This document shows positions 14,776-60,668 of a DNA stretch of 64,000 nt, piece after piece (the stretch's first letter is position 1; each line of letters begins with the position of its first letter). The notes beneath the pieces were generated by a model, which did not search any database, had not been told where the DNA came from, and was given only the letters and a program-made list of their open reading frames with translations. Location: contig CAZAZX010000002.1 of NCBI GenBank assembly GCA_964489885.1, positions 24,531-88,530 on the forward strand, given 5' to 3'. Both the position numbers and the translations under genes were made by a program. The DNA comes from an uncultured Lachnospiraceae bacterium (lineage in GTDB: Bacteria > Bacillota > Clostridia > TANB77 > CAG-508).

Positions 14776-15141
14776 ATGGGAACTTATTATATTCCGCGTA
14801 ATCTTAGAGGTGAAACAAGAATTCTATATATTTTTACTGTAAAATCTCTAATATCAACTGCAATTGGGGGAGTAATTGGACTTGTGTTCTATTTTTTATT
14901 TGCAGCAATGGGAATTAAAGTGGCAGGAATTATTACAATGGCAGTGTTTGCCTTAATTGGATTTGGAATTGGTACAATTAAAATACCAACAGTTGCCGGA
15001 TTACCATTTACAAAAAAAATTGGTGGAGAACCACTAAGTGAAATAATTAGAAGATATATTAAGTTTAGAATGAATAGAAAGATTTATACATATTATACAA
15101 AAGATTCAGTACGTACAAAGGAGGAAAATAAAAATGGATAA
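14776..15141 (+). CDS. PrgI/TcpE-like (VirB3-like) small T4SS membrane protein
   Basis: 121 aa with two TM helices, lying immediately upstream of the VirB4-like gene. Confidence 0.5.
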   Translation: MGTYYIPRNLRGETRILYIFTVKSLISTAIGGVIGLVFYFLFAAMGIKVAGIITMAVFALIGFGIGTIKIPTVAGLPFTKKIGGEPLSEIIRRYIKFRMNRKIYTYYTKDSVRTKEENKNG

Positions 15142-16372: not shown

Positions 16373-16410
16373 TAGACAGTAAAATTAAAGACCAAAGAGG
16401 AGGAAGTTTA

Positions 16411-18381: not shown

Positions 18382-18448
18382 TGTCTAAAAATTAAAGAAT
18401 ATAGCATTTATTTTAAAAGTAGAAGATAATTTTATGGAAGGTGTGTAT

Positions 18449-38338: not shown

Positions 38339-39575
38339 ATGAAAAAGGTATTATTTGCTGTAATTTTTGTTTTATGCTTTACAAGCTTTGTTTATGCAGA
38401 TGACGAAGATTTTGAACAGTTAAGTGAATTTGAAATTTGGGAAGATATTAGACAAACATCTGCAAAAGAAAGTAATTTGCCAAACGTAAATTCTAGAGCA
38501 GCAGTAGTAATAGATAGAAATTCTAAGGCAATTTTATTTGGGAAAAATGAGAATGATAAAAGACCAATGGCATCAACAACCAAAATTATGACTGCTATTG
38601 TTTGCTTAGAAAATGGAAATTTGAATAAAGAAATAGAAGTATCTCCTAAAGCTGCCGGAATAGGTGGATCATGCTTAGGCCTAAAAAAAGGTGATAAATT
38701 AACTTTAAACGATTTACTTTATGGCCTTTTATTGCGTTCACGGAAATGATGCTGCAGTACAAATTGCAATAACAATAAGTGGAAGTGTTGAGAATTTTGC
38801 AGAATTAATGAATAAAAAAGCAAAAGACATAGGATTAAATAATACGCACTTTATTACACCACATGGATTGGATAATGAAGAACACTATACTACTGCTTAT
38901 GAATTAGCTTTATTAACAGACTATGCATTAAATAATAAAAAATTTGCCGAAATAGTAAATACTAAGTATTATACAATACATATTAATAACCAAGAAAAAA
39001 ATTTAAAAAATACAAATGAACTACTTGGTGTGTTAGATGGTGTAAATGGTGTAAAAACAGGTTTTACAAATAAGGCAGGTAGATGTCTTGTTACTTCTAC
39101 ATCAAGGAATAATTGGCAAACTATTTGTGTCGTTTTAGGTGCAGATACTAAGAAGATTAGAACAAATGACAGTATAAAACTAATAGAATATGCGTATAAA
39201 GATTTTGAACTAATAGATGTTGGTAAAATTATAGAGAAAAAATATAATTTATGGAAAAGTGAGGAAGAGCCTCAAATTTATATTAATAAAGGCGAGAAAG
39301 AAAAGATACAAACATATATAGAAAAAATTCCTTATGAAAAATATCCAATATTAAAGAGTAATAAGAAAAATATTGATTGCTCAATAGAAAGTTTTAAATT
39401 TTTAGAAGCCCCTATATACCAAAATACTGAAGTCGGAATAATTAAATTGGAAGTTGATGGTAAAGAAATTTGTAATATCAATATAAGATGTGGAAAAACC
39501 ATAGAAAAAAAGTCAATTGGTGATTATTTTAGAATTTTATTCTGTGGATTGGGTACTTACTTAACAAATTTTTAA
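38339..39575 (+). pseudogene. D-alanyl-D-alanine carboxypeptidase (DacF/PBP5-like), split by a +1 frameshift at the in-frame CGG at 38741-38743 inside the SGN motif
   Basis: SxxK = ASTTK and KTG = VKTGFT. ...LLLRS|GNDAAV is broken as tca[c]ggaaat. Confidence 0.7.
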
Positions 39576-39878
39576 AGAAATATACGAAGACCTAAGTGAT
39601 TTTTTATGAGTTTTAAAATGGGCTTTGCGTAAGCTTTTGTTTTGTTTTATGCTTGTAATGTTACAAAAAGTTGCTAAAAATGTAACATTAATTTAAAAAA
39701 TGTCAAAAAAGCTAGTTCCGTAAAGGGATAGAGGTCATTTTGAAAAAATGGAAAAAAGCTCTATTGTATTTCAAATTTTAAAATGCTATATTATGACTAA
39801 ATTAATCACATAGGAGGATAAATATATGGACAACTCAGCAAAAAAATCGAATATATATTTATTAGAAAGGAGGAAAAA

Positions 39879-42800
39879 ATGAAAAAAATAAAATTAAAAG
39901 CAGTTGTGAGTATGCTATTAATAATAACTATATTATTTAGTAATTTTAGTTGGTTAAGTATATATGCATATTCAGCAACTTCAAGCTTAACATCAGATTC
40001 CACTGTATTAGAAACAGGAAAAACGTATACATTGACATTGAAAATTAACCCAACTGATGTTGGAACAACAGAAGGAATAGATTCAATGCAGGGATCGATA
40101 AAATTTGAAACAGATGTATTTAATGTGTCAAAAGATGATATAGATGATTATTTTAATGATACAAAAAAATGGCAGACTCCTTCTATACAAACTATAACTT
40201 ATGAGAATGGATTTACTATAATTTCATTTATTTCAGATACTAAGTCTAATAAAAAATATAATACTGAAACTGAAGTATTTACTATAACATTAACAACAAA
40301 AGATAGTGTAGATGTAAATAGTACGACAATATCAATAGATTCTTCAGGAATATTTGACTATTCTGTATCTGGAGGAAAAACTCAAGCTGGAGGCACTGGT
40401 GATATTTATCTTGACCCTGTATCAGTTACATTAAAGAAGGCAACTCAAGATCCTGAACCAACACCTGCAACATCAGCTATTGTTAGCAAATTTAAAAAAG
40501 ATACTACAACACTTTTAGATGGAGCAACAATTGCTTTATATAAAACAGCAGAGAATGCTCAAGCAGGAGAAAGTGCACTTGCAGAATTAACAACAGGAAC
40601 AGATGGACAAGATACTGGTAAAGTTGATTTTGCGAAGGCAACAAGTTTAACGACAGGAACATATTTTTATAAAGAAACAAAAGCACCAGATGGTTATGTA
40701 ACAAATGATACTATATATTCATTTAGTGTAGATTCAGAAGGAAATGTAACATATAATAGCCCAAATACAAAGGGAATAATTGAAGATGAAGAAGAAACAG
40801 TTGCACCAACACCTGCAACATCAGCAATTATAGTAAAACAAGATAAAGAATCAAAGGCAGTTTTAAATGGAGCAACAATTGCCTTATATGATACAAAAAC
40901 AAAAGCGGAAACAGGCTCAGAAGAAAATGCACTTGCAGTATTAACAACAGGAGAAAATGGACAAGTTGATTTTGCAAAATCAACAAGTTTAACGACAGGA
41001 ACATATTTTTATAAAGAAACAAAAGCACCAGATGGATATGATGTAAATAACACAGTATATTCATTTAGTGTTAATTCAGAAGGAAAGGTAACATATAATA
41101 GCCCAAACACAGAAGGAATTATATATGATACAGAAACAGCACCAACACCTGCAACATCAGTAATTGTTACAAAACGTATAAAAGATACAACTACACCATT
41201 AGCTGGAGCAAAAATTGCTTTAGTAGATGAATTTGGAAATATATTAAAAACAGAATCAAAAAAAAGTGCAGTATTAACAACAGGAGAAAATGGACAAGTT
41301 AATTTAGCAACATTATTAGATTTAACAAAAGGAACACATTTTTATAAAGAAGTTGCTGCACCAACAGGATATAAAGCAGATACAGAAGTATATTCTTTTG
41401 ATGTTGACAAGGCTGGAAATGTAACATTTAATGCACCAAACACAAAGGGTATAATTGAAGATGAGGCAATTACAGCTAATAGCGTAATTATTACAAAATA
41501 TAAAACAGATACATATGATGTTGTAGAGGGTGCAACAATTGCTTTATATAAAACAGCAGAGAATGCTAAAGCAGGAGAAAATGCACTTGCAAAATTAACA
41601 ACAGATGAAAATGGACAAGTTGATTTTGCTAGTAGAGCTACTTTAGAGACAGGAAAGACATATTATTATAAGGAAACAGCAGCACCATTAGGATATGTAA
41701 AAAATGATAAAGTTTATTCATTTACAATAAATGCAGATTCAACAGTAACATTTGATGAAGCAAATGGAATTTTATACAATGATAGAATTTCTGCTGGAGA
41801 TGAAACTGTTGTAATCCAAAAAGTAAAATCATCAGATGCAACACCACTTCAAGGTGCAAAAATTGCCTTATATAGCAGTAGAGATGATGCAACAAATAAA
41901 GATACAACAAATGAAGACAAAGCAATAATCGAATTAACAACTGATGAAAATGGAAAAGCATATTTTTCAAGGGAAACTACATTAGAACCAGGAACATATT
42001 TTTATAAAGAAACAGTAGCACCAACTGGTTACAGTTTAAATACAAATATTTATAGCTTTAAAGTAAATGAAGATGGAACAGTAACTTTTGAAGATAAGGC
42101 TAATAATGGAACAATATATGATGATAGAATAACAGCTCAAGAAGGAACAGCAGTAATTACAAAATATAAAACAGACACAGAAACTCCAGTTCAAGGAGCA
42201 GAAATAGCCTTATATGATTCAGAGCATAGTGCAATACAAAAAGATGGCAAAGATGTGGTATTAACAACAGATGAAAATGGACAAATAGATTTTTCAAAAG
42301 CAGTAGGATTAGAACCAGGAACATATTATTATAAAGAAACAAAAGCTCCATTAGGATATAAACTAAACGAAACAGAATACTCATTCACAGTAAGTGAAGA
42401 GGGAACAGTAACATTTGATAGTGCAGAAGGTAAGCTATACGATGAAAGAGTAATAGCAGGAGAAGATTCTGTAATAGTTACAAAATTAAGAAGAAGTTTA
42501 GAAACACCGCTTCAAGGAGCAGAAATAACCTTATATGATTCAGAACACAAAATAATGAAAGACAAAGATGGAAATGATGCAGTATTAACAACAGATGAAA
42601 ATGGAAACGCTATTTTTTCAAAAGTAGTAAAATTAGAACCAGGTACTTACTATTTTAAAGAAACAAAAGCACCAACTGGATATAGTCTAAATGAAACAGA
42701 ATATACATTTACAGTAAATAATGATGCAAGTGTAGATTTTGATAATGCAAATGGAATAATATATGATGACAGAATAACAGCTCAAGAAGGAACAGCAGTA

Positions 42801-44630
42801 ATAACAAAATATAAAACAAATACAGAAACACCACTTCAAGGAGCAAAAATCGCCTTATATGATTCAGAGCATAATGCAATGAAAGATAAAGACGAAAAAG
42901 AAATAGTATTAACAACAGATGAAAAAGGACAAGTAGATTTTTCAAAAGTAGTAGGATTAGAACCAGGAACATATTACTATAAAGAAGTACAAGCACCAAA
43001 AACATATGTTTTAAATGAAACAGAATATTCATTCACAGTAAGTGAAGAAGGAACAGTAACATTTGATAGTGCAGAAGGTAAATTATACAACGATAGGGCG
43101 ACAGCAGAAGAAGGAACAGCAATTGTAACAAAATTAAGAAAAAATACAGAAACACCACTTCAAGGAGCAGAAATAACACTATATGATTCAGAACGTGAAA
43201 TAATGAAAGACAAAGATGGAAATGATGTAGTATTAACAACAGATGAAAAAGGACAAGTAGATTTTTCAAAGGCATTAGGATTAGAGCCAGGAACATATTA
43301 CTACAAAGAAACAAAGGCTCCATTGGGATATAAGCTAAATGAAACAGAATATTCATTCACAGTAAGTGAAGATTGTGTAGTTGAATTTGGAGCTTCAAAT
43401 GGAAAAATATATGATGATAGAATAACAGCTCAAGAAGGAACAGCAGTAATTACAAAATACAAAAAGGGCACAACAATTGCTGTACCAGGAGCAGAAATTA
43501 CCTTATATAATTCAGAAAACAAAGTAATGAAGTATGCAAATGGAGAGGATATTGTATTAAAAACAGATGCAAAAGGAAAGGCAGATTTTTCAAAAGCAAC
43601 TGCTTTAGAGCCAGGAACATATTTCTATAAAGAAACAAAAGCACCAGAAACATATATTAAAAATGATACAAAATATTCATTCACAGTAAGTGAAGAAGGA
43701 AAAGTAACATTTGATAGTGCAAATAGTATTTTATACAATGATAGAATAACAGCAAAAGAAGGAACAGTAGTAATTACAAAATACAAAAAAGGAACAGAAA
43801 CAGTATTAAAGGGTGCGGAAATAACACTATATGATTCAGAACATAAAGTTATGAAAGATAAAAATGGCAAAGATGTAATATTAACAACAGACGAAAAGGG
43901 ACAAGCAGATTTTTCAAAAGCAGTAGGATTAGAGCCAGGAACATATTATTATAAAGAAACAAAGGCTCCATTTGGATATAAAGTAAACGAAACAGAGTTT
44001 TCATTTACAATTCAAAATGATGTAACAGTTAAATTTGATGAAAATAATGGAAAAATTTATGATTCAAGAATGACAGCAAAACCTGGAACAGTTACAATTA
44101 CAAAATATGTTACAGGAACTACAACTCCAATTGCTGGTGCACAAATTGTTCTATGTGATTCAAAGGGAACTATTTTAAAAGCTGATGACAAAGAATTAAA
44201 ATTAACAACAGATTCAAAAGGAAAGGTTGATTTTACAACAATAGTTAACTTAGAACCAGGAACATATTATTACAAAGAAACAAAAACACCAACTGGATAT
44301 AAATTAGATACAAAATTATATTCATTTAATGTTAATGAGGATGGAACAGTAACATTTGATAGTGCAAACAGTATTTTATACAACTCAAAAGATGAAACAA
44401 AACCACCGAAAGAAGCAGGAGCAGGAGAAGAAACAAAAGATAATACAAAAGAAGAGACAAAAACAGAAGGAAGAACAGAAACAAAGGATGAAACGAATAC
44501 AATACCTACTAAGGAAACAAAACCAGATAAATTACCTTATGCTGGAATTGAACCTATACATGTAGGAATTGGAGCAGCAATAATACAATTAATCGGAAGT
44601 GCTGTATTACTATTTAAAAGATTTATTTAA
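39879..44630 (+). CDS. Pilin-like surface protein: N-terminal cohesin-like domain, about 14 SpaA/CnaB-type repeats, C-terminal LPYAG + TM + basic tail
   Basis: Repeated GTYFYKETKAP.GY...YSF.V motif. N-domain is paralogous to those of 58808 and 59799. C-terminus KLPYAGIEP...LLFKRFI. Confidence 0.7.
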   Translation: MKKIKLKAVVSMLLIITILFSNFSWLSIYAYSATSSLTSDSTVLETGKTYTLTLKINPTDVGTTEGIDSMQGSIKFETDVFNVSKDDIDDYFNDTKKWQTPSIQTITYENGFTIISFISDTKSNKKYNTETEVFTITLTTKDSVDVNSTTISIDSSGIFDYSVSGGKTQAGGTGDIYLDPVSVTLKKATQDPEPTPATSAIVSKFKKDTTTLLDGATIALYKTAENAQAGESALAELTTGTDGQDTGKVDFAKATSLTTGTYFYKETKAPDGYVTNDTIYSFSVDSEGNVTYNSPNTKGIIEDEEETVAPTPATSAIIVKQDKESKAVLNGATIALYDTKTKAETGSEENALAVLTTGENGQVDFAKSTSLTTGTYFYKETKAPDGYDVNNTVYSFSVNSEGKVTYNSPNTEGIIYDTETAPTPATSVIVTKRIKDTTTPLAGAKIALVDEFGNILKTESKKSAVLTTGENGQVNLATLLDLTKGTHFYKEVAAPTGYKADTEVYSFDVDKAGNVTFNAPNTKGIIEDEAITANSVIITKYKTDTYDVVEGATIALYKTAENAKAGENALAKLTTDENGQVDFASRATLETGKTYYYKETAAPLGYVKNDKVYSFTINADSTVTFDEANGILYNDRISAGDETVVIQKVKSSDATPLQGAKIALYSSRDDATNKDTTNEDKAIIELTTDENGKAYFSRETTLEPGTYFYKETVAPTGYSLNTNIYSFKVNEDGTVTFEDKANNGTIYDDRITAQEGTAVITKYKTDTETPVQGAEIALYDSEHSAIQKDGKDVVLTTDENGQIDFSKAVGLEPGTYYYKETKAPLGYKLNETEYSFTVSEEGTVTFDSAEGKLYDERVIAGEDSVIVTKLRRSLETPLQGAEITLYDSEHKIMKDKDGNDAVLTTDENGNAIFSKVVKLEPGTYYFKETKAPTGYSLNETEYTFTVNNDASVDFDNANGIIYDDRITAQEGTAVITKYKTNTETPLQGAKIALYDSEHNAMKDKDEKEIVLTTDEKGQVDFSKVVGLEPGTYYYKEVQAPKTYVLNETEYSFTVSEEGTVTFDSAEGKLYNDRATAEEGTAIVTKLRKNTETPLQGAEITLYDSEREIMKDKDGNDVVLTTDEKGQVDFSKALGLEPGTYYYKETKAPLGYKLNETEYSFTVSEDCVVEFGASNGKIYDDRITAQEGTAVITKYKKGTTIAVPGAEITLYNSENKVMKYANGEDIVLKTDAKGKADFSKATALEPGTYFYKETKAPETYIKNDTKYSFTVSEEGKVTFDSANSILYNDRITAKEGTVVITKYKKGTETVLKGAEITLYDSEHKVMKDKNGKDVILTTDEKGQADFSKAVGLEPGTYYYKETKAPFGYKVNETEFSFTIQNDVTVKFDENNGKIYDSRMTAKPGTVTITKYVTGTTTPIAGAQIVLCDSKGTILKADDKELKLTTDSKGKVDFTTIVNLEPGTYYYKETKTPTGYKLDTKLYSFNVNEDGTVTFDSANSILYNSKDETKPPKEAGAGEETKDNTKEETKTEGRTETKDETNTIPTKETKPDKLPYAGIEPIHVGIGAAIIQLIGSAVLLFKRFI
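40440..44340 (+). repeat. Array of about 270-290-bp intragenic tandem repeats (near-identical DNA blocks) encoding the CnaB-like modules
   Basis: Recurring blocks such as aataacagctcaagaaggaacagcagtaat...ccaggaacatattattataaagaaacaaa. Confidence 0.6.
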
Positions 44631-44641
44631 TGAATAAGATT

Positions 44642-44681
44642 AAAGAATGATTATCAAAAAAAGATAATCATTCTTTTTTAT
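44642..44681 (+). terminator. Rho-independent terminator
   Basis: aagaatgattatc-aaaaaaa-gataatcattctt plus a T run. Confidence 0.65.
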
Positions 44682-44967
44682 CTCATTTACCTAGAAATAT
44701 AAACTAATATTTAAAGTTAACCATGTGGAAAAATAGAAGAATGTGAAAAAAGCAAAAAATCTATAACTCAGGTATGCGTAGGAATACAACAGATTTACAA
44801 AAATTCATGACAAATATTAATAAAAATGTAACATAATTTTAAAAAAAGACGAAAAATGTAGTCCCGTAGCGTGTTAGAGAATGCTTTTAAAAACTGGTAA
44901 AAACAGCTATTGTATTGAAAAAAAGAAAATGCTATAGTTTTATTAATATTAAAAAAGGAGTACAGTT

Positions 44968-47900
44968 ATGAAGAGTAAGAAGATTTTAAAAATAGTTTTA
45001 ATTTTGAGTATTGCAATAATTGCAGCTGTTGCATTAGTCTCAAAAGTATTTTCTGATAGTAGTAGATATTATGTTTTAGATGTCGAACATGCTACTGCTG
45101 ACAGTGAAGGTAATACTAAAAAAGATGACAATTTAAGAATTACAGAAAAAATTAAAGATGATGGTAAAGGAAATTTTGACACTGAAACATTAAATTATGA
45201 GGTAACAGTTTCAAATAAGAATGGAGAAAACAGCATAACACAAATTGCTATGGTTGTTGATACATCATATAGTATGCAAACTAATGATTCAGAAAGTAAA
45301 GCAAAAAGTGAAGCTAAAACATTAGCTCAAGGAATTTTTGATAATCTTTCAAAGTCAGCAAATTTGCAGATGAGTGTATTTAGTAATAACGGGCAAAAAT
45401 GTGCATTAACAAATAATGTAACATTAATTACTAATGCTATAAATGGATTAACAACAGGGGAATCTGAAGACTGTAATAATGGGCTTCAATTAGCTTATGA
45501 TTCTCTAAGTGGAGCTGCACCTGCTGGAAAAACATTAAATAAAATGATTATTTATTTTACAGATTCAACAGATAATGTTTCTCAGAAAATGAAAGATATA
45601 GTTAAGGCAGATCCTAGTTTAAAATTAATAAGTGTTTTAGTTGATTTAACAAGTTCTTCATATTTAGATTTGGATACTGCAAAACCAGTTGAAGGAGAAG
45701 TATATGTTTTACCAGCTTCTGTTAATGAAAGCGATATTTTACCAAAAGACGTTATAATATACGATCCAAATAAAATATATGATGAAGTAAATTTAGCTGC
45801 AAATAGCGTAAAGGTGGAAAACTTCTTTGACCAAGGTATAATAGAAAACTTTGATATTTCTTCTTCTGATTTTTCAGCAACAGAGGGAACAACTGTAACA
45901 CCTAAAGAAGAGAATGGAAAAATAATAGGATATGATTGGAATGTTGGTAATTTAAAATTACAAGAATCTAAAACATTGACATTTTCTATAAAACTAAAAT
46001 CTGATTCTGAATTAAACAAAATGCCTATTAATTCAAAATATATATTTGAGGACATATATACAAATGAGAAACAAAGTATTACATATAAAAAATATAATAC
46101 AGATATTGAAGTAACAATGGATGGACTAGATAAAAGAGAAGGAACAGAGGCAACAGTTGTTAAAATTTGTGAAGGATATAAATTAAAAATTAAAGCTGTA
46201 AGTGATGCAAATAGTGACTTGTCAGTAGAAGGAGTTAAAGTAAATATTACGGGAGTAGACACAAATGGAAAAGAAATATGTAATGTTGAAAAAACTACAG
46301 ATTCAAATGGCTATGTTTTAATTACACCAGATGATTCCTCAGCCTTAAGAAGAGATGGAAAAATAAAATATACTATAACTCCAATGGATACAAATAATCT
46401 TGTGGGATATACATCTTCTGATTCAATGAGTTTTGAAATTGATAATAATAAAGCAAGCAAAAAATTAATTTTTGATGATTTATATTCTGGAATAAAGAAT
46501 GCAATAATTGAATCAACAAGAACAGTCGAAGTTGAAATACCTATAAAAAGTTTAACATTAGATTTAGAAATTCATTCACAAGAACTAAATAATTCTAATA
46601 TAAACATTCCACAATGCAAATTTGAGTTAATTCAACCAAAGCTAAATAGTAAATATGAGATGTCAGTATTATATGGTACTACAGATGATAATGGTGTTTT
46701 ACACTTTAATCCAACAGTCATGACAAAAGACGGTACATATAATTATATTTTAAGACAGGTTTCTGCACCTAATGGATATGAAGTAACAGATTTGGCAATG
46801 ATAAAAATTGAATTTAAAAATGGAAGAATTGTAACACCAAGCTCAAACTCAGACTCATTAAAAGTTTTATATAATGATGCTGTATCTGCAGTCCTTGATG
46901 CTTCTTCTAAAACATCAAATACAGATCTTGTTAAAGTTTTTGTAGGAGATGAAAGCTTAAAAAAAGATCCATTTAAAATACAAATCAATGTAGCTGATGC
47001 AGATGACAACACTATAAAACTAGATGGAGTAACATATAATATTACAGTAACTGATTCACAAGGATTCCCAATAACACAACCTGCCGTAACAGATGAAAAT
47101 GGCCAAATTAATATAGAAGGATATGGAACAGGTTATTTAACACTTGAAATTGAAGAAAAATCAACAAAAGTAGGTTATGAAGAAACTAAGGATAAAAAAG
47201 AAATTATATTGCAACATGTAAATGGTAAAGTTACAATTCTAAGTTGTACACCAACAAGCATCTATAATACAAACGCATATAAAACAGGATATGTACTTGA
47301 TGGAGGAAATCAAATAGGTGTAAAAGTAAACTTAACAAGTAAGAAAAAGACAGAACAAAACATTATAAAATTAAAAATTGTGGATTCAGACCAAACGTAT
47401 TTACCTGCAGGTGAAGAAATAGTATATGAATTATTTGATGAAAATAATGTAAGTTGTGGTATGAAGGGAACTGATTCAAATGGAGAATTAAAATTTACTA
47501 TAGGCAATAGGGAGCCAAGAACATATAAATATACTTTAGTTCCTGAAACTATGACTGCACCAGCAGAATATGATACATCAAAAATTGAAACACCAATTAA
47601 TTTGGATGTAACTTTTGATAATAATGGCATAATTACAAATGCTACTAAAACTTCAACAACATATTCATCAGTAATTTCACAAAATTTCGAAATTGTAAAT
47701 AGCAATAAATTAATTGAGAATACTTATGAATTGACAATTGGATATTATGTAAGAGAAGATGCTACAATAAAATTCACAGTATTACTTAGAGATGAGAAAA
47801 ACATGACAACACCACTTGATAACGCAAAATATAATATTGATATAGAATATGAAACAACAAAGGGTGGAGAAACTGTAACAAGAACAAAAAAATTAGTAAA

Positions 47901-53900: not shown

Positions 53901-56900
53901 GGATTCTGTTAAGTTTAAAGTTACAAAAACTAATATGAATTCAGGTGAAAAAACCGAAATTAAATTTGACGATAATTTAATAACAGACAAAAATGGTAAT
54001 ATTTTATTCACCATAGATAAGTTTGAAGAAAGAAGTAATGTCCAAACATATAAATATACTATAGAAGAAATAGAAACACCAAAATCATATAGAACAATGG
54101 AAAATATTGAATTTATAGTAATATATAATACTGATGGAAGTATACAGTATTCAAGTGCGATTTTGTCAAATGGTGGAATACAGAATACTAAAGCAAGTAT
54201 AAATGTTTCAAAGGTAAATACAAAACTAGGCTTTAATGGTGAAAAAGTTCATATGATATTAAATGTACCTAATGATAATGCTTTTGATTTAATAATAAAA
54301 GATGAAGATGCTAATTATGCAGGATTTGGAATAACTGGAACAAAATATGATGTAAGTATAGATGGAATAGCATATACACCAAGTGAAACAAATTCTAATG
54401 GCGAAACTTATTTAAGCAAAATAACAGATACAGGTAAATTAACAATTAATATTTCTGAAAAGGAAGCTGGAGATGGATATGCAACAAACTTAACAAATAA
54501 GGCAACAGTAGTATTAAATAAAGGTCAAGAAGTATATTCTTTAGATCTTGATGATACACAAGAAGGTAAAGTAGATAACAAGAATGCAACTATAACTAAA
54601 GAAGTAATTTTAAATGATACTAAGACAACCATAACTAAAGCAATAATAAAAATAGATGAAGAACATGGTAAAGTTTATGTAACATTTAAAAATGAGTCAA
54701 AATTAGAAATCACTGTATTTAAAAAGGATTTCCAAACACTTGAACCATTAAAAGGAGCTCAATTTGAAATAACAGCGCAACAGGTAAATTCAATATCTGG
54801 AGATAATATCGGTGAACCAATTACAATAACAACAACAGGTGTTGATGATACAACAGATGCAAATGGCAATTTACACTTTGATTTAGGAATAGCACCACAA
54901 TCACAAAAATGGGTATACACATTTAAAGAAATAACAGCACCAGAAGGATATAACAACCTTATTCCAGAGACAAAAATTGTTGCAACATTTGATCAATACG
55001 GAAGAGTAACACTAGATAAATCAACATCCTTAAGAATGGACTCATCAATAATTCATACTGATTCAAAAGTTAACCATAACAGCAAAAATTGTAGAAGTAT
55101 AGTTGCTACTATATATAATGGTGAAGTACCACCAGGATATAAGGTTAAAGTTTATAAAAAAGATGCTCAAACAGGTAAAACTGTAAACGGAGCTGGAATT
55201 CAAATGAAGATTACTGATCAGAATGGAATTATGATTCCAATTACACCAAAGACGCAAGCATCAGGAAAAAATGGCCAAGTAATTGAAACTTCAAATATAG
55301 GCTTAGATGGACAGATTCATACAGATAAAGAAGTGAAAGAAGGAGGGATTATATTAGCTGACTCAGGTGTTGCGTATATTGATAATATTGATTATGAAGG
55401 CACTGTAAATATTCAAGTTAGTGAAGCAAAAGCACCACTTGGATATATAATTGGAGGTAATAAGACAAGTGGAAATGTTCAAATAGAAGCTAAATATACA
55501 CTAGATCCAGCAAATTTTGATGCAAATGTAGATTTAAAACTAATAAATAATGATGGTTTAGATGTTTCTATTGATAGTGTAAAACGTGAAATAATAATCA
55601 ACTTATATGATGATCCACAAGTAGCCTTCCATATAACAGACTTAGATTACAATACTGGAGGTCCAGTAAAAGATGTATATTATGTTGTTACTTCAGTAAA
55701 AACAACAGCAGCTAGTATTGTTCCAACAGATTTGAAGGTAACATCACCAACAACAGATGAAAATGGAAAAGTAGATTTTAATGCAGGAGTACCTTATGCA
55801 GGACAAACATTAATTTATACCTTACATCAAAATACACCTGCTGAATATCAGCCACTGGTAAATGATATTGAATTACAAGTTCAATTTGATGCAAATGGAA
55901 ACGTAATAAGTTGTATGTTGTTGAACAATAATGATATGGCAACAGTTGTAAATCCAATAGAACTATCACTAAAAGATCCAAATTTAATACTTGGAAAGGT
56001 TATTTACCTAACAGTTAAAAATAGAAGAACAATTCCTGATTATAAAGTTCAAGTAGAAAAACACATTATTGATTATGGAGTTGAAAAGACAGACTTTAGT
56101 AGAATTCTACCTGGAGCAACATATAAAGTAATTGTGCATCAAGAAGATGGAGGAAAAGAATATACTAAATTCACTTCAACAACGGATGATTATGGCTTAA
56201 TTGATGTTCCTTCTCAATATTTTACAGCAACTGGAAACATAACTGTAACTATACAAGAAATAATTGCACCAGATGGATATGAACTAAATGGAACACCACA
56301 AGTATTAAAATTCTATAGAGATCCTGTAACAGGTAATATGACAGAAATAAGTACAACTGAAAACTTTAGCTATAAATTTATAAATACAGATAGTCCATTG
56401 TATTCAACTGGACAACCAGTAAAAGTTGTATTGCAACCATTTGATAAACAAGACGGAGATAAATTTACATTAAAGTTAAATAAATATTCAACTTTAACAG
56501 GTAAAAATATTGAAAATAACCATGCTAAATTTACAGCTGCTATAATACAGGAAGATGAAGCAACTGGAGATTTAAAATATGAATATAACTTTGAACAGGA
56601 ACTTGAAACAGATGATATGGGTAACCTAATGCAAGAAAACTTACAATTACCAACAGAACCAGGAGAATATAAATTAGTTTTAACAGAAACAGAAGCACCA
56701 AGTGGATATGTAATTGAAAAGGATCCAATAGAATTTAAGATAACAATTGATAAAGACCCTGAAGGCTTCCCAATCATTACAAAGGCAATAGCTCTTGGAA
56801 AAGATAAAGAAGGAAAAATTATAGAATTAAAAGGACCTACTGATGAAAATCCATTTGCTATTGAATCTAGATATCAGTTCTTATCAGTAAGTATTGGTAA

Positions 56901-58671
56901 TACTCCTATACCAGGTTATAAAGTTATGATTGAAAAACATACACTAGATACGGACATTGACTTAAATGCTTATGAAAGAACTCTTCCTGGAGCTACATAT
57001 GAAGTATTAGTACATGAGGAAGATGCTGGAACAGAAGATGTAAAATTTGTTGAAACATCAGATGCAAATGGAATAATAGATATACCAGATTTAGTATTCC
57101 ATGGATTTGGATATATTACTGTTAAAATTAAAGAGCTTAAAGCACCTTATGGGTATGTAATAGATGATACAGAAAGAATTACAAGATTGTATAGAGATCC
57201 TGAAACAGGTAACTTACAAGAAATAAGTTCAAATGTTAACTATACATTAACTAATACTACTGATAAGGATTATGTAAAAGGTGAACCTGTTAAAGCAATA
57301 TTAAAACCTGTTGATAGACAGGAAGCTGGAATGTATACAATTCAAGTTAATAAATTTGCAAATAAAACTAAAGAATTAATTACAGATAGTAGTGCAAGGT
57401 TTAGATTTGAATTTATAAAAGAGGCAACAGAGTCAGACCCAGGATACCAATCAATAATAGGAACTTATGATACAAAAGATGGTAAGTTTTTACAATCCGG
57501 CTTGAAATTACCTGATGAAAGTGGAGATTATATACTTAAAGTAACAGAAACAAATGCGCCAGCTGGATATGCTGTATTAAATTCACCAATTATTATAAAA
57601 TTAAAAGTTGGCGAAGACAGTGAACATAATAAAATAATTGAAAAAGCAGAAACAGATAATAAAAATGTAAATTTAATAGCAAGAAACCAATATATATTAT
57701 TACAAGTATTTGATTATGCGGTAGACGAATTACAAGATGATGAATATTCACTAGATATTACAAAAGTTGATGCTGAAACAAATCAACCAATAGCAAATAT
57801 GGCTTTATTTAAGGTTTGGTTACCAGATAAATTGAATACAGCAGTTTATACTGAAACATCACAAACTGTATTAGGACCAGGTAAATTAGATTACTGCTTC
57901 GTTGAACAAGATAAAGATTACTCTGTAAGATTAACACATATGAACCAACCAGCAGGACCAGGAAAAGTACAATACATATTTAGAGAGGTTGTGGCACCAG
58001 AAGGATACGATTTAATAAAGAAGGACTTAATATTAACAATTGATTTTGAATATGATGAAAATGGTAAATTAAGGTTTGAAAGTGCAACATCAAGTGATCC
58101 TAATTATTTAAGAATTAATACACCAACACCAAGTCCAATTGACAAGAGCTTTAGTGTAGATATTTTAAATTATCTATCTAAAGAAGATGACTTATACTTG
58201 AAATCAAAAGAATATGTAATTGGAGATAAGCCAGATGGCTGGACAAGATCTATAACAGAAACAGAATATAAAGATGGAGACAGAATTATTTCAAAAGTAG
58301 AACCAAGAACAACACTTGCAGATTTCTTAAGTAACTTAGATACAAATGGCACTCCAACTGTAACAAAATCAGATGGAACAGCAGTAGGTTTAGGAGATTA
58401 TGTTGGAACAAATATGAAATTAACAGTAACAAAGGGAGATAAGAAAATTGAATTAACTATATCAGTAAGAGGAGATGTATCTGAAGATGGTGAGGTAACA
58501 CTTCAAGATTATTCAGATTTAAAACATTTTATGGCTAAGAAGATTAAATTTACTGAAGCTGAAATAATAGCCGTAGACTCAAACGAAGATGGAAAAATAA
58601 CACTTCAAGATTATTCAGAAGAGAAACATCTGTTAGTAGAACAAGCCAGAATAAAGAAAAAAAATAAGTAA
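44968..58671 (+). CDS. Giant (4567 aa) secreted adhesin-like protein: signal peptide, N-terminal vWA domain (DTSYSM MIDAS), dozens of Ig/prealbumin-like domains, C-terminal type-I-like dockerin
   Basis: Single uninterrupted 13.7-kb ORF with RBS AAAGGAG. The last ~70 aa match duplicated dockerin Ca-binding repeats (GDVSEDGEVTLQDY / DSNEDGKITLQDY). Confidence 0.75.
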   Translation: MKSKKILKIVLILSIAIIAAVALVSKVFSDSSRYYVLDVEHATADSEGNTKKDDNLRITEKIKDDGKGNFDTETLNYEVTVSNKNGENSITQIAMVVDTSYSMQTNDSESKAKSEAKTLAQGIFDNLSKSANLQMSVFSNNGQKCALTNNVTLITNAINGLTTGESEDCNNGLQLAYDSLSGAAPAGKTLNKMIIYFTDSTDNVSQKMKDIVKADPSLKLISVLVDLTSSSYLDLDTAKPVEGEVYVLPASVNESDILPKDVIIYDPNKIYDEVNLAANSVKVENFFDQGIIENFDISSSDFSATEGTTVTPKEENGKIIGYDWNVGNLKLQESKTLTFSIKLKSDSELNKMPINSKYIFEDIYTNEKQSITYKKYNTDIEVTMDGLDKREGTEATVVKICEGYKLKIKAVSDANSDLSVEGVKVNITGVDTNGKEICNVEKTTDSNGYVLITPDDSSALRRDGKIKYTITPMDTNNLVGYTSSDSMSFEIDNNKASKKLIFDDLYSGIKNAIIESTRTVEVEIPIKSLTLDLEIHSQELNNSNINIPQCKFELIQPKLNSKYEMSVLYGTTDDNGVLHFNPTVMTKDGTYNYILRQVSAPNGYEVTDLAMIKIEFKNGRIVTPSSNSDSLKVLYNDAVSAVLDASSKTSNTDLVKVFVGDESLKKDPFKIQINVADADDNTIKLDGVTYNITVTDSQGFPITQPAVTDENGQINIEGYGTGYLTLEIEEKSTKVGYEETKDKKEIILQHVNGKVTILSCTPTSIYNTNAYKTGYVLDGGNQIGVKVNLTSKKKTEQNIIKLKIVDSDQTYLPAGEEIVYELFDENNVSCGMKGTDSNGELKFTIGNREPRTYKYTLVPETMTAPAEYDTSKIETPINLDVTFDNNGIITNATKTSTTYSSVISQNFEIVNSNKLIENTYELTIGYYVREDATIKFTVLLRDEKNMTTPLDNAKYNIDIEYETTKGGETVTRTKKLVNRATNSFGKLSTIIPKSGNITVKVKEVTAKPGYALDYTEQEFNISCLSNGKIVINNQTPTSPKGAVVDSNQKEVIYYDYNRGRNSSDTYINLTLTKQDTQKAYVDGLMLEVESEKLLDGSGAKLDSIIATGSQTAGGKEVTGSIVYDYDDYMKKIPDSFTIKIPEEIKINEEGVYEFKVNELTTNDGGNTYVKKKNTEVKFRLIFRNKDGDVKLTNVETIYGNRLVIDKNFSSASDSNEGIQKQNELGVFLSNIQIDLYTNYDDVGNLSLDLKKFTKIKNSATGKEDIKLDGAEYDLKILNPDNSIVRKKIKIDNGDNSDSIELTGLNVYKGSIIQLTEIKAPTGYALNEATESFEVKSVDVFDSDPSKCETFEMEHIDNSYNPSRATLKQLAAGVNAAGNIKENYEIDLYDNLLQTFNMQIQTVDAEKNNVNGFTFDVSTDQGVEEKDVPVFENRTIGASPANTVVKYTIKSNKTAQYYKKIKDDIILNVVFDANGNVDVSSTKDPTNQSDSNYNKTWRIKNLTQTIEGNLELEITVEHQPPLDVRVLEKDKITDEVIKDASYKITPSNELDGTGSAKNDLQNYIAKMLVGYKIEDGTVDYTLTQTDIDARHEKIDDTKFEIEYKDGEINKASLVGTTPTDKKAPKIEIKTDTNNNSKYVEIDVYAEPKVLFKVTNLGYFDNLQLQGAKFKITEQQKQESSEGTTDANGFTNMLNSTYGEDNSKIFKVEQITASKANTGYATVEDFYIKVDFDSNREITKVVVSDETGTEITPNRFLKVGFIDNPDADDPNTPAYEFQPDDVTIEVKNYPEFKINIFDYDRRDETTPIEGTKYKVTSKYEYNNKDVDFMKTDGVVTDSTGLGVAHLDRTKFDTIVTYTIIENTPGNGYQTIGTEKDSNNPPANNVGYPTIKSSINVVVEFDSDGYVKNAYLEDKDNVEVTNIAKVSTISGDTGKFQINLQLLNNPLLKINITSVDRLNTSTKIPHNAYTVEGYTDKEVSGTKYSTKYTNASSLNKVNTNGKSDSLYTDINGQVTAYMDRTLENQEMKYVITHIKKAVGYEWLKTNPVELKVLYDAKGKIDGTPSVSVGDKDVVVESFDKDNFEINLTIYNDEIQEFGIHLTTQDTYDSDKKINQMKVEAFLTDGSTSYVSDGYHQFVGNDALLTGADRDNDGTPDLAYGEDYKTMGEYIVEGVPGNEGTTGGYNRILRLVVKNDSSPKGYYLDSADGSKTGKNVGHYRGSEYFGDSRYQTVKYQWLISVSFSDEGKITGANIISGLNQYIGWLTDDRYLEVSHTNYTLNVKMKFFPMLELNVDAIDNYVKGANGNNLKIGGGSYTISTQRHSIGGSYLDEFVTAGYIGYPESCSFASDAWVAQYTDTDGTVVRGHWKNDKWIPEHSGKNGIITGHWSSEYWSGDKWNSTAHLSPGSIAVSGHRYEDNNTLCVPIENNYTRLFYVYEDKEPTNYQKYDDRYSIYYDQKMVAIISIVFDEYGEIDYDHSITRYLTDNSGNYTGATIPIYFDESGTGYLSSNNLKEYNYTYTQHPAKTTTTVSIGYALTTKIHVTAVDNISGKPLSNIKMYPFVNNTYKTNTSYEYGTTGDRNTNGSGNVYQVYWGAADPNTQDRYIWGSSRLGSDYNGYFLPDDMTKADIGGKGTAFDYYSKLDVTYDQDGRISAVTSAAKDLWGDDTTSDIKWNSQTGEIWVNILYCRQFITQLEKFDFYDPTINLSAVFNVISNKGVKTTMSPNINSPAIKALGKVYKNETVKYTLSETEEPEGYYPIENSLDYLVSFDENGNITTNSISIPEGDSKNYLETIRTSATTENNNKTNSPDLALKVKNKAAFELNLRLIDKFYKDDGIGDVKINVTNSKGDQAIGNPQTTGKQGYVDVLASPVYPDETVIYYIEQISKANGYYQMDGRIELEVTFNKEGKINGYQIVKDASTVKGGFNAFWKTNPSDGKIYKDAAAVNLINGGRNIGLELTNMPEDVKMGLYKFDEITNKPMDSVKFKVTKTNMNSGEKTEIKFDDNLITDKNGNILFTIDKFEERSNVQTYKYTIEEIETPKSYRTMENIEFIVIYNTDGSIQYSSAILSNGGIQNTKASINVSKVNTKLGFNGEKVHMILNVPNDNAFDLIIKDEDANYAGFGITGTKYDVSIDGIAYTPSETNSNGETYLSKITDTGKLTINISEKEAGDGYATNLTNKATVVLNKGQEVYSLDLDDTQEGKVDNKNATITKEVILNDTKTTITKAIIKIDEEHGKVYVTFKNESKLEITVFKKDFQTLEPLKGAQFEITAQQVNSISGDNIGEPITITTTGVDDTTDANGNLHFDLGIAPQSQKWVYTFKEITAPEGYNNLIPETKIVATFDQYGRVTLDKSTSLRMDSSIIHTDSKVNHNSKNCRSIVATIYNGEVPPGYKVKVYKKDAQTGKTVNGAGIQMKITDQNGIMIPITPKTQASGKNGQVIETSNIGLDGQIHTDKEVKEGGIILADSGVAYIDNIDYEGTVNIQVSEAKAPLGYIIGGNKTSGNVQIEAKYTLDPANFDANVDLKLINNDGLDVSIDSVKREIIINLYDDPQVAFHITDLDYNTGGPVKDVYYVVTSVKTTAASIVPTDLKVTSPTTDENGKVDFNAGVPYAGQTLIYTLHQNTPAEYQPLVNDIELQVQFDANGNVISCMLLNNNDMATVVNPIELSLKDPNLILGKVIYLTVKNRRTIPDYKVQVEKHIIDYGVEKTDFSRILPGATYKVIVHQEDGGKEYTKFTSTTDDYGLIDVPSQYFTATGNITVTIQEIIAPDGYELNGTPQVLKFYRDPVTGNMTEISTTENFSYKFINTDSPLYSTGQPVKVVLQPFDKQDGDKFTLKLNKYSTLTGKNIENNHAKFTAAIIQEDEATGDLKYEYNFEQELETDDMGNLMQENLQLPTEPGEYKLVLTETEAPSGYVIEKDPIEFKITIDKDPEGFPIITKAIALGKDKEGKIIELKGPTDENPFAIESRYQFLSVSIGNTPIPGYKVMIEKHTLDTDIDLNAYERTLPGATYEVLVHEEDAGTEDVKFVETSDANGIIDIPDLVFHGFGYITVKIKELKAPYGYVIDDTERITRLYRDPETGNLQEISSNVNYTLTNTTDKDYVKGEPVKAILKPVDRQEAGMYTIQVNKFANKTKELITDSSARFRFEFIKEATESDPGYQSIIGTYDTKDGKFLQSGLKLPDESGDYILKVTETNAPAGYAVLNSPIIIKLKVGEDSEHNKIIEKAETDNKNVNLIARNQYILLQVFDYAVDELQDDEYSLDITKVDAETNQPIANMALFKVWLPDKLNTAVYTETSQTVLGPGKLDYCFVEQDKDYSVRLTHMNQPAGPGKVQYIFREVVAPEGYDLIKKDLILTIDFEYDENGKLRFESATSSDPNYLRINTPTPSPIDKSFSVDILNYLSKEDDLYLKSKEYVIGDKPDGWTRSITETEYKDGDRIISKVEPRTTLADFLSNLDTNGTPTVTKSDGTAVGLGDYVGTNMKLTVTKGDKKIELTISVRGDVSEDGEVTLQDYSDLKHFMAKKIKFTEAEIIAVDSNEDGKITLQDYSEEKHLLVEQARIKKKNK

Positions 58672-58807
58672 AAATAAAAAACAGCATAATCTAAGAGTGA
58701 ATTTTCTGCAAAATGATTTATAAAGATTTGCTTGCAGAAAATTTACCCTAATTAAATTTAGTGAAAGGGGAATACAATATAATTTTTATATTGTATAAAA
58801 TAAAAAA

Positions 58808-59779
58808 ATGAAAGAAGTATATTTAAAACCAATAGTATCATTAATCTTAATATTATGTATAATACTTGCAAGTATTAATGTATATGCATATTCTATTTCT
58901 GTTAAATTATCATCTGATTCAAAAAAATTAGAACCCGGGAAAGTTTACACTATAACAGCAGAAATAACTAATATTGATGCTGGAGATGGAATAGATACTA
59001 TGATGGGAAAAATAAATTATGATACAGAGATATTTGAAAGAGCTGTAGAAGATTTTGATATTACAAATGGATGGAATCCAACATTTGATGAAGAATCTAA
59101 CATATTTGTTTTAGATAGAGGTCGTAAAGTAAGTAAGCCTTCAAAGTTTTTAACAATTAAGTTAAAGGCAAGAGATAATATTGAAAAAGATTCAACAGTT
59201 ATTAGCCTAGAAGATTTAGAAGCTTCAGGTGGAAGTGTGAAAAAAGGTGGAACTGGAGATATAGAAATAAATGGAACAAATTTATCAATGGTTAAACCAG
59301 CAGAAGAGCCAGAACCAACACCAGAACCAACACCAGAACCAACACCAGAACCAACACCAGAGCCAACACCAGAACCAACACCAGAGCCAACACCAGAACC
59401 AACACCAGAGCCAACACCAGAGCCAACAACAGAACCAACACCAGAGCCAACACCAGAACCAACACCAGAACCAACACCAGAGCCAACACCAGAGCCAACA
59501 CCAGAACCAACACCAGAACCAACACCAGAGCCAACAACAGAACCAACACCAGAGCCAACAACAGAACCAACACCAGAGCCAACACCAGAACCAACAACAG
59601 AACCAACTAAAAAAGAGACAAAGGAAGAGACGAAACAAGAAGTTAAAGAAGAAAAAAAGGACACAGCACAAGGAGTTTTACCTTATGCTGGTGAAAATGA
59701 AAATATTTATTTATTATTTGCAATGACATTTTTTGCAATTAGTGGTATAATAAGCTACATAAGATTTAGAAATTTGTAA
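58808..59779 (+). CDS. Cell-surface cohesin-like domain protein with a (TPEP)n linker and C-terminal LPYAG + TM + basic tail
   Basis: Signal peptide. N-domain is paralogous to those of 39879 and 59799. C-terminus VLPYAGENE...ISYIRFRNL. Confidence 0.6.
59309..59607 (+). repeat. Tandem 12-bp repeat (ccaacaccagaa/g, about 25 copies) encoding a (TPEP)n linker
   Basis: Directly visible. It accounts for the spurious antisense ORFs in the track. Confidence 0.9.
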
Positions 59780-59798
59780 AATGTAAAGGAGATTAACA

Positions 59799-60626
59799 AT
59801 GAAAACACAAAAGCTAAAAAGTATTATTTCAATAATAATATTTTGTATTATTATTCTATTAACTTCAAAAGTAAATGCCTACAATGTTTCAATGAATTTA
59901 TCAACAAATTCTACAATGCTAGAACCAAATAGAACTTATACCATTAATGCATCAATAGTAAACAATAATACAGGTGATGGAATAGACACAATTATGGCTA
60001 CACTAGAATATGATGAAAACATTTTCGATAAATCTGCAACAGTTGTAAATGCAACAAACGGTTGGAGCCCACTATATGATGATGAAACAGGAAGTATTAT
60101 TTTACAAAAAATGAAAAAATCAAATTCAAATGACATATTCCTAACTTTTATTTTAAAGACAAAGAATAATTTAAGTGCAAATGAAACTTTGGTAAAATTA
60201 AAGGATGTAACAATGTCTGGTGGAAGTGTTGCAGATGGTGGAACAGCAGATATTTATATTCCAGAAGTAAATTTGAAATTTTCAACAAATGTAAATGAAA
60301 CATCAAATACTGGTGAAACAGTAACTAGTGAAGATAATGGTGCTGTAAAACAAGGTAGTAGCAATAATGGAGCAAGTAATAATAATAATAATAATAGCAA
60401 TAACGTTTCTCCAACAGTTAACAATAAAGAAGAAACTTCAGATTCATCAGATGAGGCACAACAAGAACAAACTATGCCAGCAGATACAAATAATAAGGCA
60501 ACTGCTGAAAAAACAAAAGGAAATGTTGGAGTATTTATAGCTATATTGATTGCTGTTGTAATATTACTTACCGTGTCTGTTATAGTATTCTTTAAAAAGA
60601 TTAAAAATAAAAAATTAATAAAATAA
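59799..60626 (+). CDS. Membrane-anchored cohesin-like domain protein (Asn/Ser-rich linker, C-terminal TM anchor)
   Basis: N-domain is paralogous to that of 58808 (MLEPNRTYTINASIVNNNTGDGIDTIMATLEYDENIFD). C-terminal TM plus KKIKNKKLIK. Confidence 0.55.
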   Translation: MKTQKLKSIISIIIFCIIILLTSKVNAYNVSMNLSTNSTMLEPNRTYTINASIVNNNTGDGIDTIMATLEYDENIFDKSATVVNATNGWSPLYDDETGSIILQKMKKSNSNDIFLTFILKTKNNLSANETLVKLKDVTMSGGSVADGGTADIYIPEVNLKFSTNVNETSNTGETVTSEDNGAVKQGSSNNGASNNNNNNSNNVSPTVNNKEETSDSSDEAQQEQTMPADTNNKATAEKTKGNVGVFIAILIAVVILLTVSVIVFFKKIKNKKLIK

Positions 60627-60635: not shown

Positions 60636-60668
60636 AGTGGATGTTTAAGGCATCCACTTATTTTTTTG
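60636..60668 (+). terminator. Rho-independent terminator
   Basis: agtggatg...catccact plus a T8 run. Confidence 0.7.

Follow-up and report, generated by a model that had tools for sequence, protein, structure and literature searches.

A candidate cohesin-dockerin module for surface display of a giant fibrillar adhesin in an uncultured Lachnospiraceae bacterium

We analyzed a stretch of 64,000 nucleotides (nt) from an uncultured Lachnospiraceae bacterium (GenBank assembly GCA_964489885.1, contig CAZAZX010000002.1, positions 24,531 to 88,530 of the forward strand; here, the window), in which four neighboring genes encode a secreted giant protein of 4567 amino acids (aa) and three cell-bound proteins with cohesin domains. 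A dockerin preceded by an X module (together, X-dockerin) is the only attachment device of the giant protein, the three cell-bound cohesin proteins adjoin it, and this synteny is conserved. We put at about 75% the probability that these genes make up a non-cellulosomal cohesin-dockerin module for the surface display of a fibrillar adhesin. Docking of this kind had been proposed in an earlier note made from the DNA letters, and it is supported here by checks on both domain types and by a directional order of cargo and then anchor; the binding itself and the choice of partner are what we infer from them.

Little is known about the means by which commensal spore-forming gut Clostridia adhere to host or food surfaces, and very large surface proteins with no recognizable anchor often go unexplained in annotation. 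The arrangement described here suggests a rule, namely, that a C-terminal X-dockerin, paired with a short cohesin anchor whose gene follows closely downstream, may be the attachment mode of many giant proteins in human gut metagenomes. Such a rule is general and directly testable with three small recombinant domains, and a cellulosome specialist would not be astonished by it. It would carry cohesin-dockerin biology beyond the assembly of enzymes, into the display of fibrillar adhesins, and would offer surface-display engineering naturally matched plug-and-socket pairs in three anchoring formats. Related X-dockerin:cohesin pairs rank among the mechanically strongest protein complexes known, the pair from Ruminococcus champanellensis being a very high-force adhesion complex (PMC7456326).

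The giant adhesin ends in an X-dockerin

All four open reading frames (ORFs) are on the plus strand, exactly where the earlier note had placed them (Table 1), and all four have a signal-peptide-like start. The giant protein has the N-terminal vWA domain with a metal ion-dependent adhesion site (MIDAS) that had been claimed for it, with a Pfam score above the cut-off and the motif in place; the N-terminal 482 aa gave no match to PDB sequences, and the vWA assignment is that of Pfam. At least nine SpaA-type domains (nine Pfam SpaA stretches) were recognized in its stalk. At the other end, the protein has neither an LPXTG signal nor a C-terminal membrane helix, and the chain stops at ...VEQARIKKKNK straight after the dockerin.

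The two C-terminal dockerin-type Ca-binding repeats read by the earlier note (the segments that it quoted are aa 4502 to 4522 and 4536 to 4556) proved genuine. The loops begin with DVSEDGEVTLQD at aa 4503 and DSNEDGKITLQD at aa 4537, both match D-x-[NS]-x-D-G-x-[VI]-x-x-x-D, and they are the sole such pair among the 283 six-frame ORFs scanned in the window. The layout is that of a type I dockerin, a duplicated segment of ca. 22 residues with an EF-hand-like Ca loop and a helix in each copy. Pfam Dockerin_1 (PF00404; cut-off, 22.9) gave 27.0 bits in the whole protein (aa 4502 to 4550) and 32.1 bits in the isolated tail. An AlphaFold model of the last 159 residues (predicted local distance difference test [pLDDT], 93.2; predicted template modeling score [pTM], 0.87) has strands within residues 1 to 92, the X module, and then helices at 104 to 114 and 138 to 158 joined by a short one at 122 to 128. 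This is the three-helix dockerin fold (Foldseek target-normalized template modeling [TM] score of 0.75 to 0.82), and in a superposition of the modeled dockerin on 2ccl_B, 60 of 62 residues matched with a root mean square deviation of 1.3 Å. Both by sequence and in its predicted fold, the tail is a dockerin, with the Ca-binding geometry whose lack the earlier note had named as a reason to drop its proposal.

The ca. 90 residues before the dockerin (LYLKSKEYVIG...) align with the predockerin segment of related loci and are here named the X module. Foldseek and superposition of the X-dockerin model gave no convincing fold counterpart of this module in the PDB. In one relative (locus L004, positions 3 to 8576), a giant cargo protein has four additional tandem X modules (aa 2402 to 2717) before its final X-dockerin; therefore, the X module can serve as a repeatable stalk unit. 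The recognition positions of the window dockerin are near-identical in both repeats (Leu-Gln at 10/11 and Lys-His at 17/18), a symmetry that would be compatible with the dual binding mode described for type I dockerins.

A word-indexed homologue search with the X-dockerin sequence alone gave no match, and a profile of 11 X-dockerin sequences retrieved 41 proteins, nearly all of them with PF00404. The profile also weakly matched EF-hand proteins, as would be expected if the EF-hand pair were a mere Ca-binding stabilizer or bound something other than a cohesin (e.g., a wall polymer), the cohesin-fold neighbors being unrelated proteins for, e.g., carbohydrate or host binding. Peer et al. reportedly described, in FEMS Microbiol Lett in 2009, dockerin- and cohesin-like modules in organisms without a known partner, which would count in the same direction. 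However, the best PDB matches of the profile were genuine dockerins (8x39 at 1.4e-19, 2ccl_B and 1ohz_B at ca. 1e-13), and the close superposition and the Pfam score argue likewise for a dockerin; together with the gene order described below, they make this explanation very improbable.

Three neighboring proteins carry cohesin domains

A family profile found exactly three cohesin ORFs in the window, those starting at 39879 (stalk anchor; E, 2.8e-29), 58808 (wall anchor), and 59799 (membrane anchor; E, 1.1e-41). Together with the single dockerin ORF, they lie within 21 kb on one strand. Their N-terminal domains (aa 31 to 188, 28 to 165, and 28 to 164, respectively) are paralogous, with pairwise BLASTP E values of 9e-40 (58808/59799), 4e-22 (39879/58808), and 5e-14 (39879/59799). 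The earlier note was thus right about a shared domain, and its length of ca. 135 aa has to be corrected to 137 to 158 aa.

Pfam Cohesin (PF00963; cut-off, 24.1) recognized the domain of the wall anchor when this was scanned alone (25.8 bits; 22.8 bits in the full-length protein). The nearest database homologues scored 31.9 and 40.6 bits, and 66 of 71 sampled family members matched Cohesin at an E value of ≤1e-3. PDB searches with the cohesin-like domain as a single sequence or a shallow profile gave no match, and the 71-sequence profile was needed; with it, we obtained 18 matches, all of them cohesins, with 1g1k as the best (4.2e-6) and the NagJ cohesin of Clostridium perfringens included. The AlphaFold model of the wall-anchor domain, the one modeled (pLDDT, 94.4; pTM, 0.86), shows nine strands in the jelly-roll beta-sandwich of cohesins. 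Its top 32 PDB matches in Foldseek were all cohesins, the best (TM, 0.78) being 2vo8, a non-cellulosomal cohesin of C. perfringens; 2jh2, from the same species, gave a TM of 0.71 to 0.74.

In its predicted structure, therefore, the wall-anchor domain has the cohesin fold, and the other two are assigned as cohesins through their homology with it and with the family. The earlier "cohesin-like" call was correct on this footing, i.e., by hidden Markov model (HMM) and structural model for the wall anchor and through homology for the remaining two. Both HMM checks that had been put forward with it, PF00963 and PF00404, came out above the cut-off, for the wall-anchor domain and the adhesin tail, respectively. 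The possibility that the domains might not score as cohesins or might fold differently was examined on the wall-anchor domain and did not materialize.

A conserved signature of the family, S-G-G-x4-G-G-T-G-D-I, follows the last long strand and precedes the final ones (aa 113 to 125 of the wall-anchor domain), where the model places a short helical turn or loop; it might be a Ca site or belong to the dockerin interface. We know of no such motif in classical cellulosomal cohesins.

Three anchoring formats

Tails with LPYAG, a hydrophobic stretch, and basic residues end the stalk anchor and the wall anchor and are the only LPxTG-like tails in the window. In the wall anchor, Pfam Gram_pos_anchor remained below threshold (15.5 bits versus a cut-off of 20). 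The layout of this 323-aa protein, a signal peptide, a single cohesin, a linker, and a C-terminal sorting signal, resembles that of ScaE of Ruminococcus flavefaciens. The 275-aa protein has no LPXTG, and a C-terminal membrane helix is its sole anchor. Both short proteins are thus anchored, as the earlier note had it, but in different formats, a wall signal and a membrane helix.

The exact 323-aa sequence was absent from a collection of 15 billion proteins. Its (P-E-P-T)n linker varies in length, the wall anchor having 315 aa in a near-identical locus (L001, 9034 to 9981). Other length variants between these near-identical genomes are in the adhesin (4567 aa in the window versus 4565 aa) and the stalk anchor (1583 versus 1580 aa).

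The 1583-aa protein presents its cohesin at the far end of a stalk of 12 SpaA repeats (PF17802; E, 2e-184). The earlier note had described it as a polymer-type, pilin-like SpaA/CnaB protein, of which the SpaA repeats stand and the polymer does not. The pilin model NF033902 of NCBIfam matched only with its C-terminal CnaB part (model positions ca. 384 to 485, repeated 11 times), the YPK pilin motif is absent from both the 1583-aa and the 4567-aa proteins, and there is no sortase gene in the window; a pilus or polymerizing pilin was ruled out on these grounds. Since both the YPK motif and a nearby sortase gene are missing, the protein is by its sequence a monomeric, single-chain stalk with a socket at its tip. 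The Lys...Glu...Asp/Asn pattern of the stalk repeats would be compatible with internal isopeptide bonds, by similarity to CnaB.

Table 1. Features of the adhesin locus (positions in the window)
Feature	Coordinates	Strand	Description
Stalk anchor, 1583 aa	39879..44630	+	Signal peptide, N-terminal (distal) cohesin, 12 SpaA/CnaB-type repeats, Thr/Lys/Glu-rich spacer, LPYAG
Stalk-anchor cohesin, aa 31-188	39969..40442	+	Two insertions versus the short anchors; assigned by BLASTP and family profile
Stalk-anchor sorting signal	44532..44627	+	LPYAG, hydrophobic stretch, KRFI tail
Terminator-like hairpin after stalk-anchor gene	44642..44676	+	14-bp stem, then T run
Giant adhesin, 4567 aa	44968..58671	+	Signal peptide, vWA/MIDAS head, very long repeat stalk, X module, dockerin
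vWA domain, aa 94-200	45247..45567	+	PF13519 VWA_2, 30.5 bits versus cut-off of 27
MIDAS motif, aa 98-102	45259-45273	+	DTSYS (DxSxS), from translated sequence
X module, aa 4409-4501	58192..58470	+	Beta-rich, packs on dockerin in the model, conserved before dockerins of related loci
Dockerin, aa 4502-4559	58471..58644	+	Two Ca-binding loops (DVSEDGEVTLQD, DSNEDGKITLQD), helix after each
Short wall anchor, 323 aa	58808..59779	+	Signal peptide, cohesin (58889-59302), ca. 100-aa (P-E-P-T)n linker (59303-59626), LPYAG (59678-59692), hydrophobic tail
Short membrane anchor, 275 aa	59799..60626	+	Signal peptide, cohesin (59880-60290), Asn/Ser-rich linker, transmembrane helix from 60525, Lys-rich tail
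Terminator-like hairpin after 275-aa gene	60636..60658	+	Closes the probable operon formed by the adhesin and both short-anchor genes

Transcription units

Terminator-like hairpins, which are consensus matches only, follow the 1583-aa and the 275-aa genes, and there is no such site between 58671 and 59799, where the intergenic gaps are 136 and 19 nt. This suggests two transcription units, one with only the stalk anchor and one that joins the adhesin to both short anchors, so that the giant gene and the two short-anchor genes are probably cotranscribed.

Gene order is conserved among relatives

At an E value of ≤1e-3, an exhaustive profile search found 1134 representatives of the cohesin family (clusters at 50% identity). 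The best 150 of these 1134 had a median length of 251 aa, and most had a signal-peptide-like start (143/150); a sortase-type tail (LPxTG/LPxAG) was present in 83 and a membrane tail only in 31. Judging from these sequences, both anchoring formats are typical of the family, in which LPxAG variants are frequent beside LPQTG and LPKTG. A cohesin at the tip of a stalk is rare, with one cluster (P0010) among the same 150.

In order to examine gene order, relatives were scanned with the cohesin and X-dockerin profiles, which covered 4 genome loci, 5 loci reached via X-dockerin proteins, and 67 metagenome loci (the genome and metagenome loci having been collected with a 4-sequence cohesin alignment). 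The short cohesin anchors fell into 17 clusters at ≥80% identity, 12 of which, for the most part from human gut metagenomes, were informative, their upstream sequence extending over 4 kb or more. An X-dockerin ORF was found upstream on the same strand in 11 of these 12, at distances from 25 nt to 4.6 kb, whereas the downstream flank had one in none of six informative clusters. A directional co-occurrence of this kind is hard to explain without functional pairing, and it is a further point against a mere Ca-binding module.

The window locus has a near-copy, 98% identical (giant protein included), on a 109-kb metagenome scaffold of the European Nucleotide Archive (L001). A diverged orthologue of the giant was found in locus L006, as a 4132-aa VWA_2/SpaA/Flg_new protein, 42% identical to the window adhesin over >3000 aa and likewise ending in an X-dockerin; it is followed by cohesin-bearing proteins, the last of which is a 227-aa cohesin anchor. 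Because this orthologue keeps both the dockerin and the directional gene order, the neighbors may be taken as partners, and this is the strongest argument available.

Other cargos differ in kind. For instance, the cargo of locus L002, 2290 aa long, combines a cohesin with an X-dockerin, and in L009, three X-dockerin proteins, two of them leucine-rich repeat proteins, lie upstream of a single anchor. Adaptor proteins with a cohesin and an X-dockerin occur in L003, L006, and L007, the first two of which also have several X-dockerin proteins, and the family includes natural multicohesin proteins that end in a dockerin (P0009 and P0017). Such multicomponent loci would also fit a broader role for the window cohesins, as general anchoring scaffoldins for dockerin proteins encoded elsewhere, within a larger cellulosome- or amylosome-like network in which the adhesin is one cargo or is bound elsewhere. 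The mutual divergence of the three window cohesins points the same way, and many rumen dockerin proteins have functions other than fiber degradation, according to one study (PMC6487960). However, there is just a single dockerin in the window, accompanied by neither a carbohydrate-active enzyme nor an adaptor, the adhesin gene seems to be cotranscribed with two anchors, and the order of cargo and then anchor is conserved. We regard such a network as unlikely to be the better description here; it would in any case extend, not exclude, a docked adhesin.

Many of the metagenome loci come from samples labeled human gut, and from these records cohesin-anchor systems appear common in people. The commonest metagenome lineage (39 loci) has an 828-aa X-dockerin protein 2.7 to 4.6 kb upstream of a cohesin anchor of ca. 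290 aa, and the second (15 loci) is a multicomponent cluster of the L003/L006 type; these dominant lineages were drawn from L012 to L018, L021, and L031 to L075.

Proposed display mechanism

The 4567-aa protein would be exported by its own signal peptide and, having no covalent or membrane anchor, would plug its C-terminal X-dockerin, in a Ca-dependent manner, into the cohesin of a cell-bound protein encoded next to it. Its C terminus would thereby be held at the cell, with the vWA/MIDAS head projected outward on the long stalk of beta-sandwich repeats, i.e., in the orientation of LPXTG adhesins with a noncovalent joint. Three sockets would be available at three heights, at the membrane (275-aa protein), at the wall on the (PEPT)n linker (323-aa protein), and at the tip of the 12-domain stalk (1583-aa protein), the latter two held through LPYAG. 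We expect that the dockerin binds one or more of these cohesins, that the contact depends on Ca, and that the vWA head binds a ligand.

Several observations weigh against this docking model. The stalk cohesin appears to sit in a separate transcription unit from the adhesin, and the three cohesins are only 28 to 42% identical, so a shared specificity is not required. When scanned alone, the stalk- and membrane-anchor domains give no Pfam Cohesin match, and they owe their assignment to homology. The recognition residues of relatives are Ala-Thr and Asn-Gln/Asn instead of the Leu-Gln/Lys-His found here; therefore, specificity cannot be transferred from them. No ORF in the 64-kb window has a credible sortase TLxTC signature, and no Sortase family was found in it by Pfam scans. 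Finally, the view is that of a window, and these cohesins could have their main partners, or further ones, among dockerin proteins encoded elsewhere in the genome.

A noncovalently attached and fully secreted adhesin might also be released and then caught by cohesins on neighboring cells as well as on its producer, its main role then being to glue cells together or to cross-link a matrix in aggregation or biofilm. Sockets on a long stalk, such as that of the 1583-aa protein, would be reachable for an exogenous ligand, and a GGDEF-domain response regulator and an HD-GYP-type gene, typical of a switch to sessile life, lie upstream. On the other hand, the evidence fits capture in cis no less than capture in trans, the HD-GYP-type gene is broken up into two ORFs, no cyclic di-GMP (c-di-GMP) riboswitch was found with Rfam, and a vWA head would still require a separate ligand for cross-linking. 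We consider a role as mainly such a glue quite improbable.

A more specific version of the docking model concerns the stalk anchor. If the adhesin were seated in the tip socket of the SpaA stalk, two secreted fibrillar proteins would be joined end to end into a composite, noncovalent, pilus-like fiber that needs no pilus sortase, and the membrane, short-wall, and long-stalk sockets would relay the C terminus of the adhesin from the Sec channel outward. Taken as a whole, this scheme is speculative, and we would bet against it, although less firmly than against the network of scaffoldins. If true, adhesins could be swapped or shared among cells, and an overlooked way of mounting them would be widespread in gut Clostridia, in a family of >1000 clusters that is common in human gut metagenomes.

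Comparison with known systems

The closest known system is that of ScaE-CttA and ScaE-ScaB in R. flavefaciens (type III X-dockerin:cohesin; PDB 4IU2/4IU3). There, ScaE, a short sortase-anchored protein with a single cohesin, anchors ScaB and the adhesin CttA through their X-dockerins and thereby makes the cell stick to cellulose, and cttA precedes scaE (PMC4081043). The window shares with it a short one-cohesin anchor with a linker and a sortase signal, set beside the X-dockerin of a nonenzymatic adhesin, and the order of cargo and then anchor. The differences are several. Whereas CttA is a cellulose binder with two carbohydrate-binding modules (CBMs), the cargo here is a 4567-aa vWA/SpaA-repeat fiber; instead of one anchor, there are three alternative ones, one of them held by a membrane helix and another presenting its cohesin on a stalk of 12 domains, and the sorting motif is LPYAG. 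In contrast to the type III pair of ScaE, the dockerin is of type I by its Pfam score, and its best superpositions were likewise on dockerins of that type; for the X module, no structure is clearly a counterpart. Pfam scans of the window revealed no multicohesin or enzyme-binding scaffoldin, dockerin enzyme, carbohydrate-active enzyme, CBM, or adaptor, so it lacks the content of a cellulosome cluster. We infer from this that the system, although similar to ScaE-CttA in its working, is no part of a cellulosome.

The earlier note had pointed to the C. perfringens pairs as precedent. They are apt as examples of non-cellulosomal use, but ScaE-CttA is nearer. Like the window proteins, NagJ/NagH and the GH33 sialidase (2JH2, 2OZN, and 2VO8) use cohesin and dockerin outside plant cell wall degradation in a low-GC Clostridium, and their cohesins were structurally closest to the wall-anchor model (TM values above). 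Their modules, however, sit within secreted glycoside hydrolases and toxins and join enzymes, while here there are dedicated cell-anchored cohesins and the dockerin is on an adhesin. Similarly, OlpA and OlpC of Clostridium thermocellum (3UL4 and 4DH2), whose structures were among the top fold matches for both the cohesin and the dockerin, have a single type I-like cohesin on a surface protein, which in their case binds type I dockerins directly. They are anchored by SLH domains to the S-layer or a wall polymer and carry enzymes, as opposed to an LPxAG signal or a membrane helix and an adhesin cargo.

In overall design, the giant protein resembles adhesins such as RrgA, GBS104, and SpaC, which combine vWA and CnaB domains and are LPXTG-anchored fibrillar or pilus tip proteins. 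All have a distal N-terminal vWA/MIDAS head on a CnaB/SpaA-type stalk, with the C terminus proximal to the cell and the binding head projected. While sortase attaches these adhesins covalently, either to the wall or to the shaft of a pilus, the giant protein has no sorting signal and would rely on a noncovalent dockerin-cohesin joint. Unlike sortase-assembled pili, the window has neither a pilin motif nor a pilus sortase.

Non-cellulosomal uses of cohesin and dockerin are broadly suspected (PMC6487960), and scaffoldins with putative adhesion domains were described in a human Ruminococcus in 2026 (PMC13463774). A full-text literature search of incomplete coverage found no paper on the combination of a giant vWA/SpaA cargo, triple anchors, and a type I-like X-dockerin. 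What differs in the window is the giant vWA/SpaA fiber as cargo, the triple anchor set, and a type I-like dockerin with a structurally unassigned X module.

Other features of the window

The G+C content is ca. 28 to 31% across the whole window, and the genes around the adhesin locus are otherwise Clostridia-type sporulation and housekeeping genes, namely, topA, trmFO/gid, yabG, sipL, and yunB. Directly upstream of the adhesin cluster are the GGDEF response regulator and the split HD-GYP-type gene (36308 to 38183), which hint at control by c-di-GMP. Riboswitch control of the adhesin genes by c-di-GMP was considered for this reason and found unsupported, as Rfam gave no c-di-GMP riboswitch at the gathering level in the window, none at an E value of ≤1 in 39400 to 45100, and no other element in the leaders. 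The HD/HD-GYP-type phosphodiesterase gene is split into ORFs of 134 and 179 aa (37259 to 38183, minus strand), and a Peptidase_S11 D-Ala-D-Ala carboxypeptidase gene (38339 to 39575, plus strand) is split into 136 and 284 aa with a 29-nt overlap. Both splits are frameshifts, i.e., pseudogenes or assembly errors.

Farther upstream, a gene set resembling a type IV secretion system lies at ca. 12800 to 26000 in an otherwise chromosomal context. It comprises several ORFs of ca. 120 aa with at least one TrbC/VirB2-like pilin (14345 to 14752), a VirB4/TraG-type ATPase (16411 to 18381), an 800-aa protein with a T4SS_pilin domain (19727 to 22129), and a 1056-aa protein with a C39-like peptidase domain (22159 to 25329). 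A role of the adhesin in conjugative mating, suggested by this cluster, was unsupported, since no such genes were found in the listed flanks of L008 and L009, which were checked unsystematically.

Between this set and the surface proteins (27885 to 29726) are a tandem pair of secreted CAP-domain proteins, the second with SH3_3, and then two tRNA genes (29532 to 29604 and 29655 to 29726). This region, just before the block of large surface proteins, may mark an island boundary. The block includes one further large surface protein of 1703 aa (30118 to 35229), with a signal peptide, repeats of ca. 190 aa, DUF11 near the C terminus, and a C-terminal membrane helix; the profile scan of the window detected neither cohesin nor dockerin in it. 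Two of its consecutive repeats are identical at the protein level, which suggests a very recent duplication or a collapse or expansion in the assembly.

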